NCBI GenBank assembly: GCA_051294375.1
Contig: JBJCIZ010000370.1
Location: forward strand, 1 to 34,071
Length of the DNA: 34,071 nt
Direction of reading: 5' to 3'
Origin: Paraspadella gotoi
Taxonomy: Eukaryota; Animalia; Chaetognatha
Positions 1,390 through 29,200 of this stretch are shown here, in pieces. The notes below the pieces were generated by a model, which worked only from the letters and a program-made list of their open reading frames with translations, did no database searches and was not told the DNA's origin. Made by a program: the position numbers and the translations under genes. The stretch's first letter is position 1; every line of letters starts with the position of its first letter.

Positions 1390-1792
1390 GGGAGGGGGGG
1401 TTGGAGTGATCTTATCTGGATTTCGGTTCCAATTTAAAGTGAGGGACTTTGAGTTGAGGAGAAACTTTGGAAAGTTCCTTCTTCTTTCACTGGAATTAGT
1501 CATAGAGTCAAACAAAACCGCACTTCACTAACTTAGTATTTCAAAAGTTGTGCTGCCATTGAATCTCACGGTGATCACTTTTTAATGTGATCATTTGATA
1601 GCCAACAAGAATGTTCAAGAACGTCCTTACCTTCCTGCGAATATGAACTCAATTGATGTAATTTTAACCTATGTAGTATGAGATTTTAATATAAATAAGA
1701 CGGACCGCACGGACAGACATACGATCGGACCGACCGACCGAACAGCCAGGACTGAAAAAGTGACTTATGAGATGCACGCGAGGGTCAAAAGG
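1390..1792. mobile_element. Non-autonomous Helentron/DINE-1-like repeat remnant
   Basis: (GACG/GACA/GACC)n microsatellite at 1699-1745, followed by AAAAAGTGACTTAT..TGCACGCGA, an end signature typical of such elements. The left boundary is approximate. Confidence 0.4.
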
Positions 1793-2274
1793 TCAAAACT
1801 GTATTTTGATTTGTTGCCTCTACAAAAACTTTTCTTCCTTTTAAATTGAGAGAAATGAAACAAAAGGCAAAGTTTGGCGTTTTTGTCTTTCACTTTAAAA
1901 CGTTTTATGATTTCAAACCTTGGCGCCAATTTATTAAATCCTTTATCTCTCTCTCCTCTCTCTTCGTCTCTCTCTCTCTCTCTCTCTTCTTTCTCTCTCT
2001 TCTCCTCTGTCTCTCTCTCTCTTTCCTCTCTCTTATCTTAATCTCCTTTTTATCTCTCGTTTCAAGACTTTGTCTTTGTTTTTTTTTCTTTGGTAGACAA
2101 ATTCCAGCGATTCTCACATCACTCACTACTCCACTTCAATCTACGTTACAACATCAATTTTTTTTAACAGCATTTCGTACTTACTCACTCCATCGCTCCA
2201 CCTTCCCCATCATGCAAAATTGTTAATCTCTCGCCTTAGGATTCTGTTGTGATGGACAACAATATTCGGGCGGA

Positions 2275-2760
2275 GAGCAGGGGGGAGGAGAGAAGGGAGA
2301 GAGAGGGGGGAGGAGAGAGAGCAGAGAGAGAGAGGAGAGAGGAGAGAGAAGAGAGAGATGAGAGAAGAGAGAGAGAGAGAGAAAAGAGACAGAGGGAAAA
2401 GAGAGAGGGAGAAGAGACAGAGAAGAGAGAGAGAGAAATGAAGAGAGGGTTGAGAGAGAGAAAGGAAGAGAGAGGGAGAGAGAGAGAGGAAGAGAGAAAG
2501 AGTGGAGAGAGAGAGAGAGGGGGGACGGAGAGAGAGGGTGAGAAAGAGAAAGAGAGAGGGAGAGAGAGAGAGAGGGGGAGGAGCGAGAGGAGAGAGAGAG
2601 AGATAGAAAGAGAGAGGAGAGAGATAGAGAAAAAGCAGAGAGAGAGAAGAGAGAGAGAGACGATGAGAGAGAGATGAGAGAGAGAGTTGGGAGTGTGTGT
2701 GATGTGTGTACGAGAGAAGATAGAGAAGAGAGAGAGAAAAGAGAGATAAAGGAGGAACGA
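2275..2760. repeat. Imperfect (GA)n polypurine microsatellite
   Basis: ~480 bp of almost pure GA/GAA repeats. Similar CT/GA tracts occur at 810-880, 985-1035, 1945-2030, 6710-6815, 7635-7950 and 22180-22405. Confidence 0.95.
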
Positions 2761-2771
2761 AATGGGAGATA

Positions 2772-3030
2772 TGTCATCTCCCAAAATCGCCGCCCCGTGG
2801 GGCGGCTCTAGGGGCGGCCCCAGGGGGCGGACTATTCCGGGGGGAGCAGAAAAATGGTCATTGAGGGGGCGCCCCTCTTGATTGCCCCAGGGGGCCGCCC
2901 CCGGGGGTTTCCCCCTGGGGCAAACATTTTGCGTCTATTAGGGCGCCCCTAATGCTAAGCCCCCCGGGGGCCCAAAAAAGCCTGCTCCTGGGGTAGCCCC
3001 TCGGGGAGCAAAATAATGCCCCCCGGGGCG
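2772..3030 (+). repeat. Left TIR and GC-rich subterminal array of the KDZ element
   Basis: TGTCATCTCCCAAAATCGCCGCCCCGTGGGGCGGCTCTAGGGGCGGCCCC aligns to the reverse complement of the right end, TGTCATCCCTCAGATTCTTCTTCCCCGGGGGCGGTGTTAGGGGCGGCCCC. Repeated GGGGC(G/C)GCCCC quasi-palindromes. Confidence 0.85.
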
Positions 3031-3882
3031 AGTTAAAGAGGAGAGCTCAGTGTGGGATCGGGTATCAAATAAAAACAACTGTCTCAATTGCCAGTTCGAA
3101 AGAGTTCACCATAACTGTATTTTTGAATGATTTAAGAAGACGATTTACAAGCCTACTTATTGATGTAGTTATCAGAAACTCGCTTAGAACTATTATCTTT
3201 TAAAGGCAGTTTGTGAAACGAGCTTAAAGCTCACAATTATATTTTCAATTCAATTCAATTCTCTCTCATAGTTTTTGAATATTTAAAAAGATACATAAAA
3301 TTATGTAACTTCCTAGTCCTATCAAAAAATGCAAGCTCTGCGATATATTATTCTTCATTACGTTTAGTTGTTCTTTAAATTAAAAAAAAAATTATTCGTC
3401 AAACTTGGTATGTAGGCACTAATCAATGTAATCATACTTTACTAATCATCTCTTCTCCTGGCCTTGGTGGTAGATTCCGTTCTTAATAATACGGGTTCGC
3501 TTCCTGCCTCTTCATCGTTATATCAACCATATTTCAATATGGCTTTTATTTAATTATAGCCAACCGACCACTGCAACCGATTTTCTTTCACGTTTGATAG
3601 TATTATTAGTTATCTTTTTTAAGTCGATGAAACTTAAGAACTTTTGCTTTTTTTTAATTCCTACATCTCTCATATCTCTTTTTTGTCAAAAAGATAATGA
3701 TTGATTTGGCGCTGTATTAATTTTATGAATATTCTGTAATTGTTATAGGCAAGTGAGAGTAAAAAAATGAGTTCAACAACATTGAAATTATAATTTCACA
3801 TACAAATACATTTAAAATGTATACAAATTTAAAATCGTTAACAAAAAATATTTTTAATAAATAAAAAAGATTCAGTATATAA

Positions 3883-6261
3883 TTATGCCTTTTGGCGCAA
3901 ATAATTATGAAAAGCCATAAAGCAAGCAATAGAGGTTTTGAAGTTTTTTGGTTTCATGTATGAAACTGAAGAAACTAATCGTTTTAAAATTCTGTTTAGT
4001 TGTTCCGTTCCTTGAGAGTTTATTGTTGAAAAAGAAGGATAGGAATTCATATTAAATGATGAACTGCAATGAGTATGGTTTTTAAAATGAAAACGGTCGA
4101 TCAAAAAAATGGAATCAGAATAAAAGATTGGCTCTCTGTTGTGACAAAATTTAAATAAGTTGCACGCATTGTCATATTGAATAATTTTTGGCGCACGTTT
4201 GAACCTTGTATATAGAAGATGATGATAAAACCGAGGACCTTCGGCTTTTAACATGAATTGAAAGCCTAAGAAATATTTGTGTTGACAACTTAAGGTAAAT
4301 ATTCCGGGATGTAGAGAGGCATGTCCGTAACTATTTTTACGACAAAATTCCTCCGTGTTTTCAATGAGATGATCATCCGCCGCGTAATTGCGAGGAGGAC
4401 GAATTCGAGGGAAACTGGGAAAGAAGGAATATGTATCCTCGTTTTGGGTAATATCTAATGGTTCAGTAGGATGCATGAGGTCATTTAAAAATGGAAAAGA
4501 AGCTAAGACGCAACTCATAATGTCAATCAAGAGCTTCTGTAAAACAATTTCTTGTTCATCACTGATAATTCCTTGATAAGCGTGGTAGATGATGGGTACG
4601 TTATTTTTTAATTCTTCTAAAATTCGGAAATCCTGTCGTATCAAACCTTTCTCACCATTAGCAATTTTGATTAATAAATTGCGAAAATCTGTATCGGTCT
4701 GAATAACTGATGCCAACGATCCAGGCCGAGAAAGCTCATAAAAAAAATAAGCGAGGCTGGAAGAAGGAAAGCAAAATTCTTCTTCCATTAAATTGGTCAT
4801 TGCTATAAACTTACTCAGAGTTCGATGGCCACTGCACTTGAGAGAATTTATTAAGTGTATAAATTCTGGTCGCGTTAAAGATGGTTGTTTTAAAATTAAC
4901 TCTCCATTCTTTTTTCTCTCGACTCCAGAATACTTTTCAAGAAGAAAACGAAGATCTTTAGAGTTAATTAACTGGCGTTGATATAACGGGATGACACTGA
5001 TTTTTTCACCTTCTCTTGTTTCAGTAACAGGGTCCATGTAGTTATTTGGTACAAACTGATACTTATTTGTAGATAAAGTTGTCCCATCGCCCTGTAGAAC
5101 ATTGCAGTTACTGTCAGGACATTTCATCAAATTCGAAAAAGGAATTTCAAGGAGATTTAAATATCCTTGCCATGCATTTTTTGTAATTCTGTATATTTTA
5201 TCAGCATCCAAAGGGTCATTTTCTGGATAGAGTAGCATTTGTTTACATCGAATTTGCTTAGAAAAAGCCCATATAGATGTAGGGCCTTCCAAAAATTGAG
5301 CCAAAAAGTTTAATAAAAGAGTGTGGGTAACCAAAAATTCATTGTTGACGTTTAATAGAGCGTAATCGAGGCCATCATAGTGTTGCCGACATCGGCATTG
5401 TCCACTTGTTCCTAAAGCATATACCGAAATGTTTTGGATAATTGTAGATTCTGTAATTATTTTTGCATTAGTGGAAATCTCTAGTGGATTGTTGGTCATG
5501 AAACTAAAGCCGTGTTCACAAACACCTTCATCATGTGGAATTAAATGAAGTGGGTATCGATCTAAACCACGTGATATTTTTTCTATTTTTAACGCCAATT
5601 CTGGTTTTAGAGGCATATGTGATATTTTTTTTTTAGAAAAAATTTGAAAAGTTGTCAATTCATTTGGATTCAGATGGTAAGGCAAATCGTTTTCTTCACA
5701 CCAGTTCTTGTAATATTCGCAATGCTTGCAAGATTTATTATTATAACTGCAGTCCTGCTTTTGACAGATTAATAAATTATTTTGTCCACCTCTCGTCAGT
5801 AGACCGTATGTGCCTTCAGAAAAAACTGAAATCAGGGTTGGACTGTCCAGAAGTTGAATAACTTCTGAATTCAAGGCTTCTACAATTGCGATTGGTGGTT
5901 TTTGTGTAACATAATCCAAATATGAATATATTTGAAAACACATGAAATCTGGACCCGTATATCTTTTGACATGAATGCAAGTCAATGAATTTTTGTATTC
6001 AATCCATTCATTTCGTATCTCTTCATTGAGAAACCCAGTTGACAAAGAATCTTTAATGATCTCGTTTGAATTTTTGGCTTGACTGCATGAACAGAAAAAA
6101 CACAATGTCCCATGAACGTCTGTTGGTTCGATGATATAAAAATATTTTAATAATCGACAGTTTTTGTCTAACTGCCGTACAACTAAGGCTTGTGTGCGGG
6201 GAAGAACCCAGAATGCTTTTCCGAAACCTGAATTGAGGATGGTTTGAATTTGGGAGCACAT
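3883..6261 (-). CDS. KDZ transposase (CxC4/Dileera-like), 792 aa
   Basis: Intact ORF. N-terminal SWIM-like CSC..CIH and C..C..CKHC clusters, a CxC-type region CEHG..CRCRQHYDG, and KDZ core motifs C..C..LQGDGT, PGIFTLSCQH..GF..M..EGP, YDNACNL, DRFH.KNH..C and NSQGTEQLN (D-D-E triad candidates). Confidence 0.9.
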   Translation of the reverse strand: MCSQIQTILNSGFGKAFWVLPRTQALVVRQLDKNCRLLKYFYIIEPTDVHGTLCFFCSCSQAKNSNEIIKDSLSTGFLNEEIRNEWIEYKNSLTCIHVKRYTGPDFMCFQIYSYLDYVTQKPPIAIVEALNSEVIQLLDSPTLISVFSEGTYGLLTRGGQNNLLICQKQDCSYNNKSCKHCEYYKNWCEENDLPYHLNPNELTTFQIFSKKKISHMPLKPELALKIEKISRGLDRYPLHLIPHDEGVCEHGFSFMTNNPLEISTNAKIITESTIIQNISVYALGTSGQCRCRQHYDGLDYALLNVNNEFLVTHTLLLNFLAQFLEGPTSIWAFSKQIRCKQMLLYPENDPLDADKIYRITKNAWQGYLNLLEIPFSNLMKCPDSNCNVLQGDGTTLSTNKYQFVPNNYMDPVTETREGEKISVIPLYQRQLINSKDLRFLLEKYSGVERKKNGELILKQPSLTRPEFIHLINSLKCSGHRTLSKFIAMTNLMEEEFCFPSSSLAYFFYELSRPGSLASVIQTDTDFRNLLIKIANGEKGLIRQDFRILEELKNNVPIIYHAYQGIISDEQEIVLQKLLIDIMSCVLASFPFLNDLMHPTEPLDITQNEDTYSFFPSFPRIRPPRNYAADDHLIENTEEFCRKNSYGHASLHPGIFTLSCQHKYFLGFQFMLKAEGPRFYHHLLYTRFKRAPKIIQYDNACNLFKFCHNREPIFYSDSIFLIDRFHFKNHTHCSSSFNMNSYPSFSTINSQGTEQLNRILKRLVSSVSYMKPKNFKTSIACFMAFHNYLRQKA

Positions 6262-6705
6262 TTTGCGACAGCAGTTGAAAATATCAGAAAATTATTCTCG
6301 TTTTTTGGCTTCTTGTTGTAGCACTTTAAAAGAAGAAACGTTTTTGAAGTGAAAGCATAAATCAAAATGAGGAAAAAGCATTGGCAGAACTTAAAAAAAA
6401 TAATAAAACGGTTAGTAATCAAGGTCAGGTCAGGTCAGGTAAGGTCAGCTTTCGTCAGTTTGATATTTGTTGTTGTCATTCCCTCTTTCTTTTTTTTTCT
6501 CTGTCTCTTGGCCTCTGTTTTAACACAAAAAAAAATTTTCTTTTCTGCGAACGATCACTCAGTCATTTTCATCGCCAATATGGTCAATATTTCGTGAATT
6601 TGGCAGCTTTCTTTAACCTCGTTCTCCCTCAAGGAAGGACAAAATTTGAACTTAAATTTCCTGTCTTTTGAAATACTCTTATCTTCACAAGCGAACTTTC
6701 GATTC

Positions 6706-6736
<31 letters not shown>

Positions 6737-6943
6737 NNNNNNNNNNTCTCTCTCTCTCACTCTCTCTCTCTTTCTTTCTTTCTTTCTCTCCCTATTTTTT
6801 TCTCTCTCTCTCTCTATCCCTCTTTGCCTTGTGTACCCTGTTGTTGTTATAATTACCATAATATTCTCCCTCAAGAAAAAGATTTAAAAGGTTTATTCAC
6901 ATCGATTCTTTCACATTGCCGTAAATTTTTCTCCATCAGCATC

Positions 6944-9138
6944 ATGAATAAAAATATTTTAAAACTCATAAAAATTGCCAATCTTTTAAAACAGAACCGC
7001 CTTGACAATAAGTTTTCTTACGATGAATTTCTTCTCATCTATCGCGATCCTCGATCACTCACATTTAAGGTATAGGTTTTTAAAAAAAAAATAATCAATT
7101 TTATCAATGTTCTGTCAATATTTTAAAAGCGCACCGGGACCAACGAACTGGAAAATGCATTTGGCGCTATTTCGCAAGAATTTTTTTATCAATATAAGCA
7201 TTATGTTTCTTTGCGTCAACAAAATGCTATGCCTCGAGTTGAACCTCTTCGAGACATCATGCCCCCGCCTCTTCCTAATCCTATCGACATTTTAGCATAC
7301 TCTGATGGGAGGTAAGTTTCGATAAGTGTTGTTAAATGAGCTTTCATTGACCTTCATTGACCTCGATTCAAGTTATATAAGTAGCGAGTTCGTACCCTGA
7401 AAATGCTTTTTTTTCCTTTAATTTACATAACATTTATATACATCTTTTTTATAGGACGTATTTGCGCCGTTTAGTTGTCGCTATGATTGGGGAAAGTCGA
7501 CCAGCAAACAATCTTGGTTGGGGGCAACCTCAGAAAAGGCCGGAATTTTACCCAGATTTTCTTCCATGGATCAACCCAAGCAATTTATCACTTGAAATGA
7601 TACGTCGCGCAATAAGTAAGCTTGTTTTACCTTTTTTTTCTTTCTTTCTTTCTTTCTTTCTTTCTCTCTTTCATTTCTTTCTTTCTCTTTCTTTCTTTCT
7701 CTCTCTCTTTTTCTCTCTCTTTCTTCCTTTCTCTCTCTTTCTCTCTCTCGTTCTTTCTCTCTCTCTATCTCTCTCTCTTTCTCTTTTTTTTTCTTTTTTC
7801 TTTTTTTAATTTTTATTTCTTTCTCTTTTTCTTTTGCTCTCTCTTTCTCTTCCTCTTTTTGCTCGTTTCCTTTTTCTCACTCTTCGACTCGGTCTCTCTT
7901 TCTCTAACTGTCTTACTCTTTTTCTCCCCTTTTATTCTCTCTCTCGTTCTTTTATTCACTCTGTCTTTTTATTTTACTTAACATATTTTCTTCTCATAAA
8001 AAAGGAGTAAATTATATTTGTTGATTTCATTTCAAAGGGTTCTTCTACGACACTTACGGTTGGAGCGTCGTTATTCATCGGGAAGACTGGGATCAGTATT
8101 GTTGGAGAAGCAGCAACAAGAACAAGCAACAAGCTGATCAAGAAAATCAACTGCAACAACAACAACAACGTCAGCAGGAACCACAACGTCAGCAGGAACC
8201 ACAANNNNNNNNNNAACCACAACGTCAGCAGGAACCACAACGTCAGCAGGAACAACAACGTCGGCAGGAACAACAACGTTGGCAGGAACAACAACATCAG
8301 CAGGAACNNNNNNNNNNGCAGGAACAACAACATCAGCAGGAACAGGAACAACAGCAAAGACAAGATCAAGAAAGGCATAATCAAATTCATTTGCTCGTCA
8401 ACCCCACTACTGAACCACTTCCACCTACTGCCCGAAGCAATGTACCGCCACCGCATCCGTTATTTATTTATTATCAGCAACAACATCTCGAAGAACTACA
8501 TGGACCTGAAGAGGATGGCCGCCAACAGAGCCATCCCATAATTGACGGTGCTGTTGGTGCTTTGCATGCTCTTCAGGAACCAGACCCGGGCTATCGAGCT
8601 CCTTTACAACTTGGTGAGTGTTAGAATTAAATATTTTTTTTTTTGTCTGTCAACGAAACAAAAATTTTATTTTAATTCTAATTTCAAACGCAACGAAAAG
8701 ATAAGCAAAGACAATACTTTGTAACTTTATAACTTAATCTTATACGATTTCTGGCTTTCTTTTCCGAGAGTGTATGGCAACAGCNNNNNNNNNNGTGACT
8801 CCCATTGGGATGAGGCATCTCACTGTTCACTATTGGGTCTTCCAACCCTTGCGCTTATCCTAGGATGGTCTTGCTTTGCCAACGCAGACGAAAGTCGTGA
8901 TTTTTTTTTAGGTACACGATCTCCAGTATCTTCTCCCGAAATGCCAGAAAATTTTGTGGCTACGCCCACTGCACGTAGACGTGCCAAAGGACGAGGAAGA
9001 GCGCGCAACCGAACGGAAGTTTTCGAAGTTGGGCACCAAAACGTCGTTGATGTTCGCCCACGACGTGGAACAATGCGTCTTCGTTCTGACGATCAAGAAC
9101 CAAGATCCCTTCGACCCAGACTTGGTTCACGTCATTAA
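6944..9138 (+). CDS. Spliced gene encoding an NRF1/Erect-wing-like DNA-binding domain, a Q-rich tract and a basic C-tail; join(6944-7069,7130-7311,7455-7615,8038-8613,8912-9138)
   Basis: GT-AG introns with matching phases give FKRTGTNELENAF..MPPPLPNPIDIL..TYLRRLV..LGWGQPQKRPEFYPDFLPWINPSN..MIRRAIRFFYDTYG. This is colinear with NRF1 FKVFGAAPLENVV..LPPL..QLRAFIP..PGWGKESCKPIWWPEDIPWANV..LRTIVKNCYKQHG (NRF1 sequence recalled from memory). Exon 4 contains N-gaps, and the true start may lie upstream. Confidence 0.75.
8150..8355 (+). repeat. Coding 18-bp minisatellite (CAACGTCAGCAGGAAC(C/A)A; QRQQEP/Q)
   Basis: Tandem units in exon 4 of the NRF1-like gene, interrupted by two 10-N gaps. Confidence 0.9.
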
Positions 9139-9539
9139 AAAGAAAATGCACCAACTATACATATTTGTTGTTTCCATTCATTGTTAACTTGTTTATTTTG
9201 TATTCCATATTTTATGTAAAAATTAAAAAAAATGTTTTTTAAAAAGAATTATTTAATTTTTTAAAAGGTCTGAAACTTCAGTACTATTCGGGCAGGTTAT
9301 AATGCAATCAGTTTTTCATTGCAAAAGAGAGAGACAGAGAAAAAAGCAAATGAATGAAAGAATTGAATAAATAAAAAATATAACAGTTGAGTTGTAAGCT
9401 GTATTAGAAAAATCCAACAACAAGTAAATGGAAGAAGAAATGATAAAAGAAAAAAAATATATACGTAAGTAAGAATGTAAGTAAGAGAAAGAGAGAGAGA
9501 GAGNNNNNNNNNNAGAGAGAGAGGGAGGAGAGAGAGAGC

Positions 9540-9772
9540 CGTTCCGGGGGGCAGGCAAATTCATCACCCCCGGGGGGGGCCCCGAGGGGAAAGATTTTTA
9601 TAGCCCCTGGGGGATTCCCCCTGGGGCGGCCCCTTGGGGCCCAAAAAAATGGGCCCCAGGGGGCCGCCCCCAGGCGGTAGGGATTTGCTGCCCCTCGGGG
9701 CCGCCCCGCGGGGCCACCCCGAGGGGCCGCCCCTAACACCGCCCCCGGGGAAGAAGAATCTGAGGGATGACA
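9540..9772 (-). repeat. Right TIR and GC-rich subterminal array of the KDZ element
   Basis: GGGGCCGCCCC/GGGGCGGCCCC units at ~9623, 9660, 9697, 9710 (variant) and 9723; ends in GATGACA. Confidence 0.85.
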
Positions 9773-10499
9773 TACTTGGTAAACTTCCTCCTCTCTGTAA
9801 GGTGATCGATGTCGATCCTTCTGCAAGCCCGCGCATCGATTCCTCGTTACAATTGATCTAAGGAACGGACTCTCCTCAAATCGTCGCTGTCTGAATTGTG
9901 ATGGTTTCCCACTCGCCAATCTGGCGGTCCAGACCCGACGGCTCCCCTGATGCATAAACTAAATAAAATTCTCAAGAAAAGGTAAGGTAAGATCTGCGAT
10001 AGACCTGGAAAGAAAAAATTATGAATTGTGTAACAAATTTTTCTGATCTTAATTAATTTCATTTGTTATAAAAAACTATGGCCAATTATTTTTTCAACTC
10101 CTTGCTTCATAAAAAAAACCAGAACAATCTTACTTCAAATTTCGATGTCCTTTTGTTGAACCGCAAAGGCACGAAAAAAAAATTGGAAAAGATTGACGCG
10201 AAGCGTAATTTGGGATTTTCTCTCCTTTTAAATTTGTAGAATATTTAGGTAGGCGAAGAACGAGTAATCCTTTGGAGGCAAAAAACTTTATTCGTAACCA
10301 CCGCTGAACACCAAGTGGAGGACGGAATTTTTTAGTGAAAGGAATTCGATACCAAAGTAAAATGAACGAGAGTTTATTTCAGTATAACATCGAAGGGAAA
10401 AATGCGCGCAGAGAATAAAATAACAATGACTTTTATATGAACTACTTTGTTTACCAAAGTAGGAATGTGAAAGGGAATGGAATTTAGGCCGAGAAATTA

Positions 10500-11609: not shown

Positions 11610-12019
11610 CCTTAAAATAAATCGTTGATTATTATTCAAACTTTTCTCAATGCAAAACAACGAAAGAAAGGATTTCACAAAAAAAAAATAATATTGAGAG
11701 AGATATATAAAGTTTATGGTAACAACAATGATTTTTTTTTAAAATCAAACAAGTTTTGACTTAGGAATTTTTGAGTCATCAGCGTTTGACAAACTGACTG
11801 GCTGAAAAGTGAGTACTTGGTTGAAAGCTGAATGGGGCCTTAAACCACCAAAGCCGGTCCAAAGTCAGCAGAAAGAGAGCTTATTTATTAAAAAATGGAT
11901 AATATTATATTGCTTGTACCAATATCATATAATAATACAGTGAGTCACAATAGTAACTGTCCATTTAAAAGCTTACTACTCCTATACCAGATAGAAAAAC
12001 TAATTCATCTATCAATAGC

Positions 12020-12192
12020 ATCATTTTGTTTGATTTTTCCTCTACCCAAAAGTCCGGGATTCAAGCCGAATGGTTGCCGTGCAATTAAGAGGGACAGGGC
12101 GCCTAACCCGCCTGTAACATTAAGGTGTTACAGCCTGATCCGAAGCTGCAAGGACTGCTTAAATTGAACGGTTCTGCGACTAACAATTATTA
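12020..12192 (+). mobile_element. tRNA-derived SINE copy
   Basis: B-box-like GGGATTCAAGCC. The ~150-bp body is an inverted homolog of 23175-23355. Confidence 0.6.
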
Positions 12193-12278
12193 CTGTCTCT
12201 TCAGCACTTATTTTATATAAAATTTAAAATTTAACAATTTAATATCAATTAAAAAATATTTCTCTACATAATTTTTAT

Positions 12279-12488
12279 GGCTAAATTTTACTTTCGCCCA
12301 ACCGCGGTTTCAGCGGCTTTTGAAAAACCATTTAAAAATATTTTTTCACAAAAAAAAATAAAAAAATATTCCCTAATAAGCTTAAACCCTTAACCCATTT
12401 AACCCTAACCACCCCTAACCCTAAATCACCCCTAAACTACCTTAACCCTAAATCCATCCCTAACCCCGGTCGCTGAAAGTAAAAGTCC
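12279..12488. mobile_element. MITE-like element with an internal degenerate (CCCTAA)n array
   Basis: Inverted ends TTTTACTTTC (12286-12295) and GAAAGTAAAA (12475-12484) enclose CCCTAA-like repeats at 12370-12470. Confidence 0.5.
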
Positions 12489-13599
12489 CAATTTTTAAAT
12501 TTTAAAACATTTAAAAATTAAAAAAAAGCGGAAAATTAGGACTGATTTTAAAATTAAATTGATTGTTTTCGCAGGAAAAATTGATAAAAATTGTATAACT
12601 ATTACTTTAGTCATACAGACCATGGCTGTCGGATACGATGACGATGCCAGAGATATACTATTAAACCTTCCTGGCCATCTTGATAAGGTTGCGGACACTT
12701 GAAAACTCAAAAAAACTTATCACTTTATCAAAGATTCCCAGAAAGAATGCTGACGTAAGATTTTCTAGCTGCTGATTATCACTCTGGAAACCGCCAGCTG
12801 CGTTTTGATTTCAGTGGAACGGATTCAGTTAGCTGTTCTTTATACTTTTTGTTTAGCTGATTGTTTGGCTGACTGAGCGCGCGCTCGCAGTTTGGCTACA
12901 GCTTGACGGAGACCGTATGAGCGTAGATCCGTCAAAGGAATTCGTGGTGCTGATTTGAAATTGACGAAGTTGTTCAGCTTGAAGAGTAGATTCAGATGGT
13001 ATCAAAATAAGTCTCATTTATCTTTAGAGAAGGTCTTTTATTTGAAGTTGAAATCTTGCGATTCTTTGTAATTCGAAAAGATCAGATCTTGGAGACTACT
13101 CGAAAATAAACTTTTTGTTCGGGCGATCGAGGTAAACAATAGTTGTCTTGTTCTTTTTACCTTTTTTGTCTCCTATTGTCTAGTGACCTGTCCATGGATT
13201 AAAGAAAACTATATCAATTTTTAGAATTATTAGTTTACATACTTTAAACACATGAATCCCTTTCTGCTTTTTAATTCATTCATTAAGAATTATCCATTTG
13301 TGAAACGGTTGTGAATCCCTTCTCTGCAAATTATGTAGAAGAATTAAAAAAAAAGAAGTTAATTTTTTTTTACCATTTAATACCAAAATACAATGTATAA
13401 TAATAAAAAACTAAGCTAACCCTAGCTAAAAAAATTTACAAAAAAATATTCATTGGTATATATATACAAGCTCTGTCAAAAACTGGTTCTTCTTCGTTCT
13501 CTTCCTTTCTCCTCCTCCACTCTTCCTCCCTCACTCTCCCGCCTCCCCTCACTTCTCTCACCTCTCCCAATATATCCCCTCTCCTTTTCTTTCTTCTCC

Positions 13600-15627
13600 C
13601 TCCCCTACTACTACAAAACCCAATTTGTCTCGTGTTCTCCTCACCGCTGCTCGCCGCGACGCTGGTCACATAAGGCGCCCAGTTACGTCTGCCGCCTGAA
13701 GACCGCACGCCGACTCCCACGACGACGCCGAGTCCCCCACTAACGCTCGCGGATTGCTATTATGCTAAGAACGCTGTAGAAACAAATATTCAACCAGATT
13801 TTTATATAAAATCATTATCCTAGTTTCAATTTCTTTTTTTGGATTTTTAAAATATCAATTTTTTTACTCACATTAAACTGCTCTGCCAAAAGGGCCTTCG
13901 ATCCTCTTCTTCTTCTTCCTCCCTCGTTCTCGTCGTCATCATCGTCGTCGTTCTCGGAATTTCGAATCTGAAAAAAAAGATTTGAAGCAAAATTAGAAAT
14001 ATTTGTGGCAAAAAAAATCGCGTTTCGCGGCGAATTCTTTTTTAGACGTTTGAAAACTTTTTTAAAGTAGTAATGGTGAATGATGTAGTGGGTGGTGTTG
14101 ATGTAGAGGTTGATGGAGCGGATGATGTTGTAGAGTGTGATGTAGAGGTCGATGGAGTGGTTGATGGAGTGGATGATGTTGCTGTAGGGTGAGATGTAGA
14201 GCTTGATGGAGTAGATAATGTTGTTGAGTGTAATGTAGAGGTTAACGGAGTGGATGATGTTGTTGTAGAGGTTGATGGATGGGATAATGTAGAGGCTGAT
14301 GTAGAGGTGGTTGTAGAGGCTGATGGAGTTGATGATGTAGAGGATGTTGTGGAGGTTGTTGTTGAGGTTGTTGTGGAGGTTGTTGTGGAGGCTGATGTAG
14401 ATGGTGATGTAGAGAATGTTGTAGCGCTTGATGTAGAGAATGTTGTGGAGAATGATGTTTTTGCTGCTGTTGTCGTTTGTCGCCGCCGTCGCCAACTTGA
14501 CGGCCACGGCGCCACCCAAATTGGCGAAGTCGTCGTCCTCGCCACCCACACTCTCCCCGGTGGCGGCGCGGGCGTCGTCCACTCCATTGTTAGAGGTGGC
14601 GCAGGCGTCGCCTCCTCCGGCGCTGGACGCCAATATAAAGATGCTGGTCGTCGTGTGGAAGGTCGCCACGGAAAAGTTGGTATGGGCGCAGGTCGCAGAA
14701 CTTCTGGTGCAGGTCGCCAATCTTCTGGCGCTGGACGCCCACTCGTCGTTCTTGGCGCCGGACGCCGAGTCATCGTCGTTGTCCTCGGCGCTGGTCGCCT
14801 CGGCGCTGGACGCCAAGTTGTCGTCGTCGTTCTCGACGCTAGACGCCGAGTCGTCGTCGTTGTCCTCGGCCTCGTCGATGGACGCCACGGAAAAGTAGGT
14901 ATTGGCGCCGGTCGCCTATCCTCCGGCGCCGGTCGCCGATTCGAAGGCGCTGGACGCCAATCTACGGGCGCTGGACGCCAATTGACGGGCGTTGATCGCC
15001 GCGTCGTCCTCGGCGCCGGTCGCCGCGTTGTCGTCGTCGTCGTCAACCTCGGCGCTGGTCGCCGCGTCGTCATCGTCCTCGGCGCAGGTCGCCGCGTCGT
15101 CGTCCTCGCTCGCCACGTTGTCGTCGGCGCAGGTCGCCGTGTCGTGGTCGTCCAAGATGTCGTCGTCGTCACCCTCCTCGGCGCTGGTCGCCACGTCCTC
15201 CTCGGCGCCGGTCGCCAAGTTGTCGTCGTCGTCCTTCTCCTCGGCGCCGGTCGCCAAGTGGNNNNNNNNNNNNNNNNNNNNNNNNNNNNNNNNNNNNNNN
15301 NNNNNNNNNNNNNNNNNNNNNNNNNNNNNNNNNNNNNNNNNNNNNNNNNNNNNNNNNNNNNNNNNNNNNNNNNNNNNNNNNNNNNNNNNNNNNNNNNNNN
15401 NNNNNNNNNNNNNNNNNNNNNNNNNNNNNNNNNNNNNNNNNNNNNNNNNNNNNNNNNNNNNNNNNNNNNNNNNNNNNNNNNNNNNNATTCGTGGGTGATT
15501 TAGCTTACCAGCAGCAGCAGCAGCAGGGAATCGTCGACGATTGCGACGAACAACGACAGCTGGTTGAAATGGAACGTTCGGTGGATCAGCTTCTTCGCGA
15601 GTTGGAGGAGAAAAATGTGGGCCAAGC
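13600..15627 (-). CDS. Putative spliced mucin-like membrane protein (WRPAP-T repeats, S/T-rich stalk, acidic linker, hydrophobic segment)
   Basis: ORF 14042-15172 is continuous (RRPAPRTTTT repeats, then STTTSTTSS). Candidate exons at ~15508-15627 (AG..GT) and 13873-13967 (CAG|IRNSENDDDD..QFN|GT). A distal exon has VLSIIAI..ASVSGGLGVVVGVGV (needs a frameshift). A gap lies at 15262-15486. Confidence 0.45.
14590..15260. repeat. GC-rich coding minisatellite (GGCGC(T/C/A)GG(T/A)CGCC + (GTC)n spacers)
   Basis: Roughly 20 units of about 21-40 bp, open in several frames on both strands. Confidence 0.9.
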
Positions 15628-15994
15628 TGAAAATTGAACTCGGGCAAAGGGGGGAGTAAAAAAAAAGTAAACAATTAATAAATGTATATACAAATTATTA
15701 GCTCGCGTTTTTTTTCTCTTTTTGCTAATATATGTTTAAAAAAAAATAAAATGTCTCTTTCTTTCTTTCTTTCCTTCTTTCGTTACAAAGCGACTACAAA
15801 AAAAAGGGGGAAAAATAGATAGTATATTCTCCGTTAGTTACCTATATTAAAAATGGAGATGCCCATTTTTCATTGTTTTTTCCATACGTCAGAAAACAAA
15901 AGAAAGATAGGAAATTTTAGTAAATTACGTGAATTGTTAGTAACAAATTTAGTTAAATATTAAAAAGTATTTTAGAAAGAAAAAAAAAATCACG

Positions 15995-18965
15995 GCAATA
16001 ACTAGTTATACAAAGCCACTCGGTACGTGATCAAAAGAAGACAAAAAGAAAAGACAAAAAGGAAAAAAAGAAAAAGAAAAGAAACCGAAAACGCTCATTG
16101 TTATTGCTGTTGAAAAGACAGAGGGAAAATCTTTCATAATTGAAAAAGAGCGAGACAAAATATTAGAATAAAATAATAATAATAATTAATGATTGCCGCA
16201 AAAAAAAGGTGGATCGAAACCTATTACAAAATAGTCTTTGTTCAAACGTATTCGACTTCACCCGCAGCAAAAACAAAGGAATTTCCTGAGAAAATTATCA
16301 CAAAGAATACGATTGAAATTTTGCGTCACATAGAAGAAGAAAAGAGAAGAGAAGAAGAAGAAAAGGTCAGATCGTTACAAAAAGGATAGATCTGAGTAAG
16401 AAATAAATAATAATATGTTTACCTCTTTTAATATGTATTCAACTTCGAAAGCAACAAAAACAAAAGGACCAATTTCATAAAGAAGATAAAGGAGGAGAAT
16501 AGGAGGGAAAATGGAGAAGAAGAAAAACATAAAAAAAAGAGTCAGTACAATCTGTACAAAATGGATGGATTCTGAGAATGAATTTAAAAAATAGTTTGAA
16601 TGTGATGATATAAATACAAGATGTTAGTAAAAAATTTTAGAAAAGAAGCATATTATATTTTTTCGCAAAGAAAAAAGAAAGGTCCATAAATAAGCCAAAA
16701 AAACGCCCAAAAAAAACACATTTTCATGCCTTTCTTTCTTGGAAACCCATACCGTATGGAAATATATAATATAGGCAGAAGTTATCCCGACCACCGACCG
16801 ACCGACAAAATCTAAAACCAAGGGGAAATTGAAAGGAAAAAAAAAAAAAACTCGTCGTGAGCGAGCGTTTGTTTTTTTTCACTTTTTCCCCTTTTTTTTT
16901 CGTTGCAGAAAGGCGAGAGAGAGAAAGAAGAGATAGTAACTAATATTACTATACTAATAACTTAGCTTAATTCGCGTGGCGTCCCATCTCTTCTTCTCGC
17001 ACTCATTTCTTCGTTTAGACCCGGGAGAGGAGTCCATTTTATAGCAAAATTTTTTTTTTTTAACTCGCCGTTTAGTGGCAGGGTGGTGAAGGAGATTCGT
17101 TAATAGAGTAGGTAAAACTGCGTGGTTATTAAAAAAATAAATAAAAATAAAAATTTTACTCGGATATCGATATCGATAACAAGTCGTCCTTCGTTTTTGA
17201 GATTGGAGGAGCGTCCGAAGCTGCAGTTCGGACCTAAGTCTCTCTCTTCCGCTGATCATGCGCTCATTCTCTTCGAGTTCTCGCTCCTACTGGCTCCTGC
17301 CTCCTCTTCTCGTAAAAGGTTGTATAAGAGTGTCGTCGTCGCGGCTTCCCGTCCTCCTCGTCCGTCCTCGTGGCACGTGTCGATCCACTTTCTCGCAATT
17401 CGTCGGGTCGTCGTCGCGTCTCTCTCTTCGGATCCAAGATACCGCGACGATGCGCCAGATGATGGTTCAAGGAGGAAATAATAAGGACTCAGCCAGAAGC
17501 GGTGTGTCTATGAATAATATATTATAGTATGAGTATGTATGTACTTAAAAATGTAAAACATAAAAAAACGCGACGACAACTTCGAAAAATTGCGAGGAAA
17601 ATTTTTCCATTCGACTTGAATATGAAATATCCGCGTCTAAAATTGCGCGAAGCCTGTGTCGTCTGGTGCGATCGCGACTCAAGAGTCTTCGTACACTCTG
17701 TTATTATTTACGTTATGTTACGAATATTATATATTATAATAGGTTTCTCTCTTTCGGCCTTCATTCCTCAACCGATTGGTCAAACGTGAGCACCATAATC
17801 TTTAGTTATTCTTACCATCCGCGCTTTTTCTAATATTCAGTCCTCTCGGAAAAAGGCCACCTGCCGCAGGGCGGCACGGGCGAGCGGAGGGGCGGCGGAA
17901 AGCAAACCCTATCATCGTCGTCGAGTAGAGACTCCCCCTATCGCGGAGAGAGAGCGGAGGGGAGGCTGCTTCCCGACGCTCGTGAGAATCGGCGAGAGGT
18001 TGGGGGAGGCCTGGACCCCCAACCCCTCTCTCGCGCGGAATTCTCCGAGGTTGGACAAAAATTTTTTTTCTCCTCGCCCCCCTCTCCTCCTCCATCTCCC
18101 CCCTCTCGCCTCAAAAATTTTTTTTTTGGGAGAGGAGAGGAGGGAGAGGAGGAGGGGAGGATAGGAGGAAGAGAGGGGGAACGATACGGAGGAATTGAAC
18201 GGCGAGTAAGTGGAGGCGGGGAACGAAGAGAAGGCGGACTGGAACCTATCCCTCGTTATCGTATTTCTTTTTTGGCTTTTCCTCCCAAACAGTCCCCCTT
18301 GATTCTGCTAATCCTTCGGTCCGTCTTTCGTCGGTCGTCCAAATGCCATCTCAAAAAGAAACGAGAGACGAAAAAGAGATAGAGTGTATTTCGCGAACCG
18401 TACAAAGAAATCAAAAACAATCTCTTACAACTTTCATATACAGAAGGCATATTCGAGAGTAGCACGCTCGGTTGTATTACCTCGTATGAGCCTAAATCAT
18501 GAGCGAGTAGGAGCGCCGGGGTAGCCAATAACGAGAAAATATAGGGGGAACGGACCTGTCAGAGAGAGGCGGCGGACTTAGTCGCGCGAATAGCTAGAAA
18601 CAGTAACCTATAACAGGCTACCAGGGACCTGAGTAGAGTCCAATAACGGTACACTCGCGAAAGGGAGACGATAGTTTCTGCGCCAAAGCCAGCATAAACA
18701 ACTTTAAAAACAAAGAAAAACGCTTTTTCCAATGTAAAAAGAGATAAAAATTTCCTTAAAACACCGGAAACGATACTTTCAAAGGCCAGCGAAACAGAGA
18801 GCAAGATCATAGTTTCCCAAAGAAATAGCATTTCGGTTGAGAGAAACGCACTTGTATAAAAAATCCGGCCGGATTCAGTCGTGAGAGAGAGAGAGAGAAT
18901 GGAAGAATGAGAGAATGAAAGAGAGAATGAAAGAGAGAAAAGAGAAAAAGAGAGACGAGAGAGGC
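15995..18965. repeat. ~3-kb tandem duplicate of 18991-21220 + 27097-27650
   Basis: Colinear homology (e.g. 16011 vs 19005, 17450 vs 20428, 18240 vs 27170, 18810 vs 27505). The junction is a 25-N gap at 18966-18990, and the copies differ mostly by small indels. Confidence 0.9.
16954..18880 (-). pseudogene. Duplicate copy of the 3' exons of pPolB-2 (frameshifted)
   Basis: GFFIQVRFSQPK (cf. GYILEVDLEYPK), VREIHSISF (cf. KIHRVL.F), KAKKEI..NEGIG (motif B-like) and RFWLSPYY.PLNHHLAH (cf. KRYIL..TLPYGH). Confidence 0.65.
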
Positions 18966-21900
18966 NNNNNNNNNNNNNNNNNNNNNNNNNGGAATAACTA
19001 TTGACAAAGCCACTGGTCACGTGACAAAAACTTGTGACAAAAAAAAGACAAAAGAAAAAAGAAAAAAGAAAAAGAAACAGTGATACGGCTCATTTGTTAT
19101 TGCGGTTGACAGAAACAGAGAGGAAAATCTTTCATNNNNNNNNNNNNNNNNNNNNNNNNNNNNNNNNNNNNNNNNNNNNNNNNNNNNNNNNNNNNNNNNN
19201 NNNNNNNNNNNNNNNNNNNNNNNNNNNNNNNNNNNNNNNNNNNNNNNNNNNNNNNNNNNNNNNNNNNNNNNNNNNNNNNNNNNNNNNNNNNNNNNNNNNN
19301 NNNNNNNNNNNNNNNNNNNNNNNNNNNNNNNNNNNNNNNNNNNNNNNNNNNNNNNNNNNNNNNNNNNNNNNNNNNNNNNNNNNNNNNNNNNNNNNNNNNN
19401 NNNNNAAGGGACCATTTCTGAGAAAATATATCACAAAGGATATACAATCGGGAAATTTTGTGACACATAGAAGAAGAAGAAGAGAGAGAGGAAAATGAAG
19501 AAGAAGAAAAAAATAAAGAGTCACAATCAGTACAAAAGGATGATTCTGAGAATGAATTAAAAATTGAATATATATTGAATACGAATGTTAGTAAGAATTT
19601 TTAAAAAAGCATATTTTTTCCAAAGAAAAAAAAAAGGCCCAATAAAAAATGCCAAAAAAACGCCAAAAAAACACATTTTTCATGGCCTTTCTTTTCTTTG
19701 GAAAACCCATACCGTGGTAGTATGTTAAAAACGTATGGAATAATAATAATAGGGCAGAAGTTTCGTACCGACCACCGACCGACCGACGAAAATCTGAAAA
19801 CCAAGGGGGGAAAAGGAAAGGAAAAAAAAAACTCGTGAGTGAGCGTTTTTTTTTTCACTTTTCCCCCCTTTTTTTTTTCTGTTCGCCGTTCGAAAGAAAA
19901 GCAAAAGAGAGAGAGAAAGAGATAGTAACTAATATTACTACTACGAATAACTTAGCTTTATTCGTCGGTGACGTCCCATCTTCTTCTTCTCGGCATCCAT
20001 TTTCTTCGTTTAGATTCGTTAATAGAGTAGGTAAAACGGTGGTTTTATTAAAAAATTAATAAAAAAAAATTGTTACTACGATATCGATAAAAGTCGTTCG
20101 CTTTTTGGACGGACTTAGAGAGGTCCCGCTGCAGCGATAGCTGCGTCGGACGCTGCTAAAAGTTACTCTCTCTTTCCGCTGGATCATCGCTCTCGTCATT
20201 TGCTCATTCTCTCCGAGTCCGCTCCTACTGGCTCCTCCTCCTCCTCCTCCTCTTCTTCAATTAAGGGGTGGATAAGAGTCGTCGTCGTCGACCTTTCTCG
20301 TTGTCCTCGCCGTCGTCATCGTCCCACTTTCGTCGGTCCCGCTGGGCCATTCTCGTCGTCCCATTTTTTCGTCGTCCTCGTCGTCATCGTCTCTCCTCTC
20401 TTCGGCGTCCAAGATAGCCGCGGCTCGATGCGCCAGATGATGGTTCAAGGGGAAGGAATAATAAGGAACTCAGCCGAGAAGCGTTTGTCCTATTAATAAT
20501 ATATATATGTATGTATATATGTATGTATAAATGTAAACAAAAAAAACGCGACGACTAACTTCGAAATTGCTGAGGGAAATTTTTTCCAATTCGACCTTGA
20601 ACATGGAATATCCCGCCGTTCTAAATTGCGCGAGCCTGTGTCGTCTGGGCCGGTCGTGACTCAAGACGTCTTCGTACAACTCTGTTATTATTATTTACGT
20701 TATTATAATATTTACATTCTTCTTCTTTCTCTCTCTCCTCTCACCGGTATTGGTCAAACGTTGAGCCACCAATCTCTTGGTTTTTCCTTTACATCTGGCG
20801 CTTTTTTCCAATATTCGAGTCGGNNNNNNNNNNNNNNNNNNNNNNNNNCTCTCGGAAAAAGGCCACCTGCCGCAGCGGCGGCGGCAGCGGTAGGGGTAGC
20901 GGCGGGAAAACAACCCCCTATCATCGTCGTCGAGTAGAGGAGGCCTCCCCTATCGCGGAGCTAGAGGAGGCGGAAGGAGGAGGGTGGCTCTCCGACGCCT
21001 CGGAGAATCCGGCGAGAGAGTTGGGGGGGGCCTGGAAGGCCCCCCCAACCCCTCTCTCGCGCGGATTTCCGAGGTGTGACAAAATTTTTTTTTTCTCCTC
21101 CGCCCCCCTCTCCTGCCTCCATCTCTCCTCCCCTCCTCGCCTCGAAAAATTTTTTTTTGGGGAGGGAGGAGGAGGAGGGGGAGGAGAGGGGGGGAAGGGG
21201 AGGGAAAGGAGGGGAAGATTGAGGGGGTGTGCAAAAATTTCAAAATCATAGTAGCTCAATTTACATCCGGCACAATATGTGGGGGTTAAAAAAGTATGTT
21301 TGCCCAAATCTCATCGAATTTGCTTCAACACCCTTAGCAACTACCTCGCTTAAAGGATTTTTGGCACACCTTTGACTAAAAATTAATTGTTTAAAAAATA
21401 TGACTTGTTTATCGTCACTCAACTTTATTAGCTGAGGAACTCATCAAGATTATTTTCACATCATTGAAGTGCTCATTTCATCCCAAGCGCCTTCACAACT
21501 GGCTCCACAGCAAACGCTGGAGGATGTGGAGTTGATAACATCATTGCTTATAATTCCTAACATTCAGGGTAGAATCTCTTACTTTGACATAGTTTTTTAC
21601 ACTAATATGTTCCTCTATATAAATCAACAACATTTGATTTTTATTTAGAGGTGGTGGTTACATCCTGGAGGATAATTTCTGTTTCCTTTTTTTATTTTTA
21701 ATAAAATTACTATTTTAAAATTACATTTTTCGGATAATTTACATTACAGGCTGATGTAAGATGATACAAAAATTGGTCAGATTCCAAAAAAATTGCATGA
21801 ATTAAGCGTAGGTTTCAAGAGAGCCTCTCTTGAAGGATCTGGGAGCACACTCAACACCCCTTTAAATGAGTAAAGATACCTTATTTTTTAATTAAAATGC

Positions 21901-26291: not shown

Positions 26292-29200
26292 GGTATTATG
26301 TGTACTAAAACTCTGAAAGCATAATTTGGTCATAACATTTAACCATACAGAAGCATTTTTTATATTTTAAAAAAATGAAGGTATCTTTACTCATTACTAA
26401 AGGGGTAGTGTGCTCCCAGATCCTTCAATGAGAGCTCCTGAAGCCTACGCTTAATTCATGCAATTTTTTTGGATCTGACCAATGTTTGTATTCACTCTAC
26501 ATCACACTGTAATAGTAATTATCCAAAACATGTAGATTAAAATAGTAATTTTATTAAAATTAAAAAAACAGTAACAGGAAATTATCCTCAGCGACTGTAC
26601 CACACCACTAAAATAAGAATAATGTTGTTGATTTATAGTAGTAGCGAACATTATTAGATTAATAAAACAGTGTACAAAGTAAGAGATTTCTACCGATGAA
26701 TTGCGTTACGGAATTATAAGCCAATGATAGTTATCAACTCCACATTCCTCCAGCGTGCGTTTGGAGCCAGTTGTGAAGGCTGTGGAATGAAATGAGCACT
26801 TCAAATTGGATGTGAAATAATCTTTGATGAGTTCCTCAGCTAATAAGTTGAGTGCGAACGGAATAAACAAGTCATATTTTTTAAACAATTAATTTTTTAG
26901 TCAAAGGTGTGCCAAATCCTTTAAGCCGAGGGTAGATGCTAGGGTGTTAGAAAAAGCAAATTCGATCGAGATTAATTTAATGGGCAAACATTATCGATAT
27001 TTTTCGTATACACCTCTGGCGACATATCTCGTGCCAGGATGTAAATTGACAACACCCGCTTCTAACTCATGCATTTTGAAATTTTTGGCACACCTCGGGG
27101 ACATGTATAGAGCGGGAGGGAATGGTACGGCGAGTAAGGAGGCGGGGTAAACGAAAGAAGAAGGTGAGACTGAACCTTCCCTCGGTTATCCGTTATTTCT
27201 TTTTGGCTTTTCCTCCCAACAGTCCCTTGATTTCTGCTAATCTCTCGGTCGTCTTCGTCGCTCGTCCAAATGCCTCCAAGAAAGAGGACGAAAAAGAAGA
27301 GGAGACGGTCGCCACCTCCCTTTCTCGATTATCTCGAGTAGATCGACCTCGGGATCGTAATCTTTCTCGAGTGGGCGCCGGGGTGCCTCGAGAAAATAGG
27401 GGAGGAATTTCGGGGGGCGGAGTCGCGATCGGACGCCTCGGCCCAGGGACCGTGGTCCTCGGTAACTCAAAGGCCAAGTTCTGCCGCCGCGCCGCCGCCG
27501 CCCCATAGTTTCCAAAGAATAGCATTTCGGTTTGAGAGAAACGCACTTGTATAAAAAATCCGGCCCCGGATTCGTCTGAGTGAGAATAGATGAAGAATGA
27601 AGAGAATGAAAGAGAATGAAAGAGAGAGAGAGAGAGAGAGGATGGGCTCTCACCTTTTAAGCAACCGAGTCTGTTCTATTACGATCCCTCCACATTCGTA
27701 ATATAGGTATTCTATCCTTGTTTTCCAACCAATACGGATGGGTTTCTTCGGGACTATAATTAAGTAATTATAAATAATCTAATAATGATAATATATTAAT
27801 CAATTATTATTTACTAGTCTTTAACGTCCAAAATGAAACAGAGATGGGCCCAATCGCGCCAAAACAAGCCAGTCGACTCTCGTAGTCTTTCGTCATGGCC
27901 AAAATATCGGCCAGCTGATTACTCAGGATGGTGAAAAAAACCTCCTTTCGGCAGAGGGTACGACATCGCTTTACCTATAATATTCAAAAAAACGCGGAGA
28001 TAAGTTACCCGTATTGTTATTATATTATATTATTATACTTAACATAGAGATTGGTAAAATCTTGATAAATTGAGTACTGCCCTCGTCCTCGTTGTCGAAA
28101 CCCACTTGGTCATTGTTCGCTACGGCGTAGCGCGGGAAGAGAGATCAGTCGGATACAACAATGGACGGGCGATCGGGTCTTATATTTCTCGTTCGCTGTC
28201 ACTGGCGCTTTCCTATTGGAAAGGCGAAGTCAAGTGTCTCCGATCGTCTAGGACACCGTTCAAATGCGGTACTTTTTTATTTTATTTTTGGTCATTTTAT
28301 ATAGTTTATCTCGATAAAAAATATTAATATAAATTATATTTTTTTAAAAGTTTTACCATTTACCGCCGCAACTGGTCAAACTAAGACGGTGATGTTGAAT
28401 CTGGGAACCGTTTATTCTTTCCCTCGTCGAATTCCAACGCTGATGGGATTTCGCGAAAGAGGAGAAGTCGCGTTTGTCGCGATGAGACGACGATGACGAG
28501 ACAGATACGACGTGGGCACCAATAAGAGGGCTAAAAAAGACATTAGAGAAATGCGCGTTTAATTTGTTTAATTTGTGGTTTAATTTTCCTATAAATTCAA
28601 GTTTTTTTTTGTTTTTTTTGAGAAAAGATAACGCATGGCGGAATGAATGGAGATGGATACAATTGCGTAGATCCCCATTTCCAACGGTGCCTTGAGCTGG
28701 CCCATCGAATCGAGTTTTGGGCAGGAAGCTCACGTTCATGCTTCGAGTCTTGAGGAAACTACGCAATCTGTTTTCATCGCGAATACGAGTGGTGGGACCA
28801 CATCAATCTTCCATCATCATTTCGAGGTTTCACGGGGAGTCGGGAAGAAATAGCTTTCTGCAGGTAGATGCCGAGAACGATCCGGACTTGAAGCTGTAAC
28901 AGACAAAAACTTTTTTTTTTGACCACGAACTCCAAATCCGGACATCGCCCAGCTAAAAACATAACTTTTCCTTCTTAAAAAAATTAGTACTAAATCCTTA
29001 AAATTCATAGTCTTATTTCATCGATTATTTATACGTCGAAGGTGATTATCACATGTAAGAATGGAATCGAAACTTAATTTGTGAAATAGGAACAATATTT
29101 ACAATTCTTGCGAGAATTTCGAAACATATACGATATCTTATCAAATTTTAAAATGTAATAAGAGTTTAGAAATTGGGAAAGAAGGGGAAGAATTTATGAT

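Follow-up and report, generated by a model that had tools for sequence, protein, structure and literature searches.

A chaetognath KDZ transposon carrying a predicted, divergent NRF1-type gene

Introduction

Why should a cut-and-paste transposon carry a gene that resembles an animal transcription factor? The question is raised by a 7-kb element of the chaetognath Paraspadella gotoi, found on contig JBJCIZ010000370.1 (assembly GCA_051294375.1), of which we analysed 34,071 nucleotides, here called the window. Between the ends of this element lie a KDZ transposase gene and, head-to-head with it, a second gene whose predicted product is related to the DNA-binding domain of NRF1. The presence of such a pair in one element appears to be new; the claim that NRF1-like proteins act as helpers at the level of a family rests on one locus. 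As for the element itself, we give even chances to a two-component organisation, with an element-borne NRF1-type protein as putative helper binding the ends.

Results

Ends, boundaries and copies of the element

The element (2772-9772) is a DNA transposon of the cut-and-paste type, and these coordinates are exact. Its features are the following.

2770..2771, no strand: TA on the left flank, likely one copy of a 2-bp target duplication (sole flanking duplication of 2-10 bp; other copies cease matching at 2763-2770)
2772..3028, plus strand: left end, an imperfect terminal inverted repeat with GC-rich subterminal palindromes (two GGGGCSGCCCC, eight CCCCNGGGG), common to an abundant family in all four sequencing runs
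3883..6261, minus strand: CxC4-KDZ transposase, intronless, 792 aa (ATG at 6261, stop at 3883, one stop-free frame)
about 5556-5236 and about 4305-3904, minus strand: CxC4 and KDZ core, respectively (transposase motifs GDGTT, YDNACN, DRFH and EQLN)
6262..6943, no strand: 682-bp spacer between the two start codons, with a TC microsatellite and no terminal palindromes; probably a shared promoter
6944..7069, plus strand: exon 1 of the second gene, 42 aa; likely helix-strand-strand of an NRF1/MADS-type dimerisation domain, judged by position, length and pattern (no tool match)
7130..7311, plus strand: exon 2; likely the last helix of the dimerisation domain and a Pro-rich linker (no tool match)
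7455..7615, plus strand: exon 3; core of the NRF1-like DNA-binding domain, with the first helix and the GWG and P..YP..LPW loop
8038..8613, plus strand: exon 4; likely the end of the last DNA-binding helix, then an 18-nt repeat coding for a Q/E/R-rich tract
8912..9138, plus strand: exon 5; Pro/Ser stretch, Arg-rich tail and stop codon (poly(A)-type signals at 9222 and 9366)
9567..9772, minus strand: right end, a terminal inverted repeat with subterminal palindromes (four GGGGCSGCCCC, six CCCCNGGGG)
9773..9774, no strand: TA on the right flank, likely the other copy of the target duplication

Both ends, at 2772 and 9772, read TGTCATC inward. The inverted repeats are imperfect, with 43 of the first 59 bases paired without gaps and a gapped likeness over about 180 bases. 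A local alignment of one end against the other scored 103, compared with 36 +/- 6 and a maximum of 62 in 500 dinucleotide shuffles. This bears out the matched terminal repeats that an earlier reading made from the letters of this DNA (the sequence-only reading) had placed here.

In terms of flanking duplications, TA is the only one found among lengths of 2 to 10 bp, and none is left if TA is assigned to the ends. It is likely a 2-bp target duplication or, alternatively, the tip of the inverted repeat; a single locus fits both. A target duplication of 7-8 bp was rejected, since only TA was found with either placing of the ends.

As for other copies, contigs of four DNA sequencing runs (X1, X3, X6 and X9 among the run names), one of them possibly the source of the window itself, were aligned to positions 2700-6700. 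The numbers of matching contigs were 133, 49, 47 and 20, most of them stacked on 2770-2970 at 90-99% identity. Summed depth, which does not equal copy number, reached about 12,000-14,000 at the left end in X1, where the interior had about 50; in X3 the two values were about 4,000-6,000 and 27. The contrast is of two orders of magnitude in three of the four runs and about 30-50-fold in X9. Among the loose-end alignments listed, four (8 contigs, 3 runs) depart from the window at 2763-2770 into unrelated flanks. The left boundary is therefore right, and this end is common to an abundant family of gene-less copies. The evidence for mobility consists of the inverted ends and of these left-end copies with unrelated flanks, in three of the four runs shown. 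Over the interior, each run has a single contig, for which no difference is listed within the transposase frame or over exons 1-3; the interior looks single-copy.

A contig at 2850-3254 has about twice the interior depth (X3, X6 and X9) and matches the left end to about 3200 with several small indels; it is likely a longer sister copy. Short runs of an AGGTC/AGGTA pentamer were also observed, in the inter-gene spacer (6418-6450) and just beyond the right end (9979-9992).

The KDZ transposase

The transposase is intact, as the sequence-only reading had it, with 792 residues free of stops. The Pfam KDZ profile (PF18758) matches with an E-value of 2.9e-10 (40.6 bits against a cut-off of 26.6, profile positions 76-217 of 217), and CxC4 with 1.1e-7, over its curated cut-off. 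A SWIM-like C-x-C...C-x-H can be seen by eye close to the N-terminus. All four aligned sequences keep the D of GDGTT, the D of YDNACN and the E of EQLN without variation, and we take these residues to be the catalytic acidic triad. Pfam also gave a weak match to NleG (E 0.026), which was set aside as chance.

The relatives of this transposase are distant, with 29% identity over 599 residues to P0013 and 30-40% over long matches to 41 loci. A word-based protein search gave three relatives; among longer proteins there was one, with no NRF1 fusion listed. Viral contigs contain one distant relative, and prokaryote genomes one matching contig of 762 bp. A tree of 20 transposases, with short or split-core loci left out and built without named K, D or Z references, does not resolve the position of the window transposase.

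Some of the related loci have features of their own. L001:8399-10573 and L003:5518-8061 are intronless CxC4-KDZ transposases on gene-dense contigs, one of them from a viral collection, with neighbours that look giant-virus-like by eye. In L005, a Sir2-family gene (1409-2224, minus strand, Pfam E 1e-13) lies head-to-head with a CxC4-KDZ transposase (3565-6285, plus strand), an arrangement that may represent a KDZ element partnered by a sirtuin. The related loci L008:437-4921 and L009:746-5835 contain a 1070-aa KDZ transposase and, tail-to-tail, a frame of 415-432 aa with no Pfam match. The N-termini of these two transposases are 34% identical to each other and have no PDB match, and L019 groups with both in the tree. 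By eye the N-termini of L008 and L009 seemed MADS-like, a candidate that we rejected because they match neither the window (hhalign 0.1%) nor PDB.

The second gene

The predicted gene starts 682 bp from the transposase ATG and ends 634 bp inside the right end. Its four introns, of 60, 143, 422 and 298 nt, are all GT-AG, and the spliced product has 423 aa and one stop, taking two short N runs in the exon 4 frame at face length. The head-to-head gene of five exons described by the sequence-only reading was thus recovered, and its predicted product contains the NRF1 motif pattern, the Q-rich tract and the basic tail listed there. The Q-rich tract covers residues 187-268 (57% Q), and the final 56 residues are 30% R+K.

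The five-exon model remains a prediction. Introns 2 and 3 are indirectly backed by relatives (see below), and introns 1 and 4 are drawn from splice consensus and frame alone. Pyrimidine tracts are weak at the acceptors of introns 1 and 3. In run X9, which was guessed to be RNA, one contig carries introns 1 and 2 unspliced, as in DNA runs, and is uninformative on expression.

Relationship to NRF1

Taken by itself, exon 3 matches NRF1 as the sole PDB entry under an E-value of 10 (E 0.018), and Nrf1_DNA-bind (PF10491) as the sole Pfam family (E 0.063, 13.4 bits, below the cut-off of 23.5). A HMMER search of 1.84 billion proteins then returned seven relatives of exon 3 (E 7.6e-10 to 1.2e-4), 44-58% identical to the window, which represent six distinct exons. 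They are gene calls on metagenome contigs of 561-2278 bp. A word-based protein search with exon 3 gave no match, and no relative of it was found in viral contigs.

The relatives match the spliced product only within residues 101-150, which is the span of exon 3, and four of them begin exactly where this exon does. Their conserved part ends in [IL]G, and the next residue is K or E in six of the seven and V in one. This ending corresponds to a read-through of a phase-1 GTAAG or GTGAG donor, and a phase-1 donor stands at this very position in the window gene, from which we infer that the intron positions are common to the window gene and its relatives. Ahead of the last helix, the window protein has 8 residues fewer than most relatives. 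By these similarities exon 3 is placed in a small, unnamed NRF1-like family.

With the six relatives added, the NRF1 score became about 25-fold better and the match lengthened to 56 columns. Against 177,635 PDB sequences, the family profile hit NRF1 8k3d with an E-value of 6.7e-4 and 8k4l with 2.3e-3, the next, unrelated match having 4.0; only NRF1 chains stand below E 4. The untrimmed family alignment gave NRF1 with an E-value of 8.5e-4.

The alignment of the window to NRF1 spans 40 ungapped columns (NRF1 204-243), and its register was checked on K221 and N242 (PMC10810270). The window and all four relatives that cover the position retain the base-reading R206, and K221 is not kept in the window. 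On this comparison, exon 3 is homologous to the NRF1 DNA-binding domain, and the second protein is predicted to be a divergent NRF1-type homologue that stands outside the NRF1/Ewg family proper.

A structural model of 54 aa of exon 3, from a nine-row alignment, has a pLDDT of 68 and a pTM of 0.37. Foldseek placed 8k4l first and second of three matches, none of them significant (E 2.2, TM 0.38), and the same weak model had no VIA match at Z 2. A model from the single exon-3 sequence (pTM 0.20, too weak) gave no fold match.

Residues 1-104 have a helix-strand-strand-helix look, which would agree with the pattern of NRF1. The DNA-binding domain starts at residue 105, and the 104 residues ahead of it match in length NRF1 98-203, a segment that contains the minimal dimerisation region and a linker (PMC10810270). 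The NRF1 likeness put forward by the sequence-only reading stands for the DNA-binding domain; a likeness of exons 1-2 to the NRF1 dimerisation domain obtained no support from the tools.

The way in which NRF1 binds DNA has been called novel, with SRF as the closest fold, and only for the dimer part (PMC10810270). In short, the window protein resembles NRF1, Erect wing and P3A2 (PF10491; 8k3d, 8k4l) in its homology over the first helix and loop, in R206 and N242, and in an N-terminal segment of dimerisation length. It differs from them in scoring below the Pfam cut-off and in lacking R244, K221 and the N-terminal 99 residues. It also has no match to the NRF1 C-terminal domain, having instead the Q-rich tract and basic tail, and it lies inside a transposon.

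Candidate sites at the ends

The window contains 6 copies of GGGGCSGCCCC and 14 of CCCCNGGGG, in all cases at most 260 bp from one of the two ends; neither was found in the spacer between the genes nor elsewhere in the window. These 20 sites compare with 1.6 expected and a maximum of 7 in 500 shuffles, a figure that overstates the significance because the motifs were picked from these very ends. All 6 GGGGCSGCCCC sites have a CpG inside. Near-palindromic sites suit a dimeric binder, and it is as a dimer that NRF1 contacts its GC-rich palindrome (PMC10810270). The terminal near-palindromes may hence be the sites of an NRF1-like dimer.

Comparison with known systems

The closest architecture is that of the Zisupton lineage (fish Zisupton; KDZx1 of Cryptococcus deneoformans, PMC11343200; Pristionchus elements, PMC9297572), which shares inverted ends and a CxC4 with a SWIM-like finger. 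This combination on a KDZ transposase is the canonical Zisupton architecture (PMC11343200), and KDZx1 likewise has two genes, in 6.4 kb (PMC11343200). In contrast, the element has TA or no duplication, whereas Zisupton makes an 8-bp one (PMC12730594, PMC11343200). Its transposase is intronless with 792 aa, against 1166-1400 aa and several exons in Zisupton, and its partner is NRF1-like, against TET/JBP or unknown partners. The Pristionchus elements have inverted repeats and no duplication was detected in them, according to the excerpts (PMC9297572). For KDZ elements, 8-bp duplications and extra genes of unknown kind are described (PMC11343200), and extra genes are also noted in giant ones (PMC12477816). 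Links of KDZ to F-box proteins are also described, with no NRF1 in the excerpts of that article (PMC12062965).

Dileera and Kyakuja, fungal elements that carry TET/JBP genes, also combine a KDZ transposase with a separate accessory gene inside the ends (PMC12730594). Their duplications, of 8 bp in Dileera and of 7 bp in Kyakuja (with CA..TG ends and no inverted repeats), differ from that of the element studied here, and their accessory gene is a dioxygenase (PMC12730594). Compared by such descriptions, the element likely sets itself apart from the described KDZ lineages by its TA duplication.

Harbinger (Myb/SANT) and CACTA/EnSpm (TnpA) elements would, on the helper reading, resemble this element functionally, with a transposase, a separate DNA-binding protein and repeated subterminal motifs. 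The comparison is functional only; transposase and DNA-binding fold are unrelated. Nuwa Harbingers, for instance, have a Myb/SANT partner (PMC12730594). Membership in Plavaka or another CMCT group was considered for the TGT..ACA ends and 2-bp duplication (PMC12730594) and rejected, because the transposase is KDZ.

The rest of the window

Outside the element, 149 open frames have no Pfam match above the cut-off. A degenerate TAACCC-type repeat at 12380-12470 is telomere-like and internal to the contig. GC-rich tandem repeats at 14042-15674 leave several frames open on either strand, with an Asp/Ala-rich product on the minus strand, and are interrupted by N runs. Two diverged copies of one stretch, with similar translations, lie at about 16900-18400 and 19900-21400, with a possible third, inverted, near 27000-27700.

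Discussion

What could the NRF1-like gene do for the element? In the mechanism we propose, transcription of both genes would run outward from within the 682-bp spacer. Exons 1-2 of the helper would fold as a MADS-like dimer module, and the dimer would bind the GC-rich palindromes in both ends and coat these ends. Its Q-rich or basic tail would recruit the transposase, in the manner of TnpA in CACTA and of the Myb protein in Harbinger, which bring in the transposase at the ends. The transposase would then cut at TGTCATC and insert at TA, and the low-copy coding element would supply both proteins in trans to the non-coding copies.

Several observations are in favour of this helper. The NRF1-like gene lies entirely within the ends, and both reading frames of the element are open. 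The family of exon 3 is diverse (six distinct members in seven) and far from canonical NRF1, which is unlike a fresh copy of the host NRF1. Extra genes are also frequent in described KDZ elements (PMC11343200, PMC12477816).

Other results weigh against it. The pair of transposase and NRF1-like gene was seen at one locus only, and the single interior contig per run leaves no sister element for comparison. The seven relatives of exon 3 are on short contigs and come without genomic context. None of the 41 KDZ loci matched the exon-3 profile (best E 2.5), although only 7 of them extend 3.2 kb upstream of the match, the distance at which exon 3 is found in the window, and their transposases are distant. 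For these reasons, the wider statement of the sequence-only reading, that the family uses an NRF1-fold accessory protein, was not substantiated. In terms of residues, R244 is lost in the window (Ser) and in all relatives, so that the DNA target likely differs from TGCGC; N242 is kept in the window only, and the window lacks a Trp common to NRF1 and all six distinct relatives. None of these six matches Pfam Nrf1 singly. Exons 1-2 have no match in Pfam or PDB, to NRF1, MADS or otherwise (exon 2 alone, or exons 1-2 read across intron 1). Finally, the zinc clusters of the transposase itself could bind the ends.

The best surviving alternative, which we regard as possible and somewhat unlikely, is a capture. 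A single-gene KDZ element would have taken up, as cargo, a member of a fast-evolving NRF1-like family expanded in the host, and the transposase alone would bind the ends. This agrees with the single sighting of the pair and with the four introns that the gene keeps, at positions apparently common to relatives whose location is unplaced. Different neighbours at other KDZ loci, such as the Sir2 gene in L005, point the same way. Captured cargo is usually fragmentary, as in the Pack-MULE type. The gene in the window is on the contrary complete and intact, and it fits between the spacer and the right end, where no additional host DNA can be seen. Nor is there an evident recent donor, because no second copy at 85% identity or more over exons 1-3 was found in any of the four runs.

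It is unlikely, in our view, that the protein is instead a regulator of transcription or chromatin, which would activate the shared promoter or shield the ends from silencing and have no role in the transpososome. NRF1 is itself a transcription factor, and a tract with 57% Q would suit such a role, as would the CpG in all 6 GGGGCSGCCCC sites. Transposons are methylated in a chaetognath (PMC12460157), and methylation blocks the action of NRF1 at retrotransposons (PMC12420836). The palindromes are nevertheless confined to the ends, with none in the inter-gene spacer. Lastly, a chance or short-motif likeness to NRF1, with an unrelated accessory gene or a wrong gene model, would fit the weak single-sequence scores (E 0.018-0.08), the match of exon 3 alone and a gene model that is a prediction, but we consider it very improbable given the roughly 25-fold better score of the family profile over 56 columns, with nothing else under E 4, and the relatives that match precisely the predicted exon.

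Returning to the putative helper, if it is true, this would be a partner gene of a KDZ transposase whose task and binding sites can be predicted, in contrast to the described partners, most of which are TET/JBP or unknown. The locus also suggests a KDZ lineage that makes TA duplications and has a large family of non-coding copies. Should the gene be only cargo, it still reveals an unnamed family of NRF1-like proteins. Among the matches listed in full-text literature (Repbase and most subscription journals being outside the search), no report joins an NRF1-type domain with a transposon-encoded protein, and we found no account of the origin of the NRF1/Erect wing domain. A broader scenario, which we consider doubtful at present, is that NRF1-type proteins, with a MADS-like dimer module and an NRF1 DNA-binding domain, are standing helpers of an animal lineage of TA-targeting KDZ elements, and that NRF1/Erect wing descends from such helpers or trades domains with them. 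A divergent NRF1-type family inside a transposon would be a candidate source for the NRF1/Erect wing domain.

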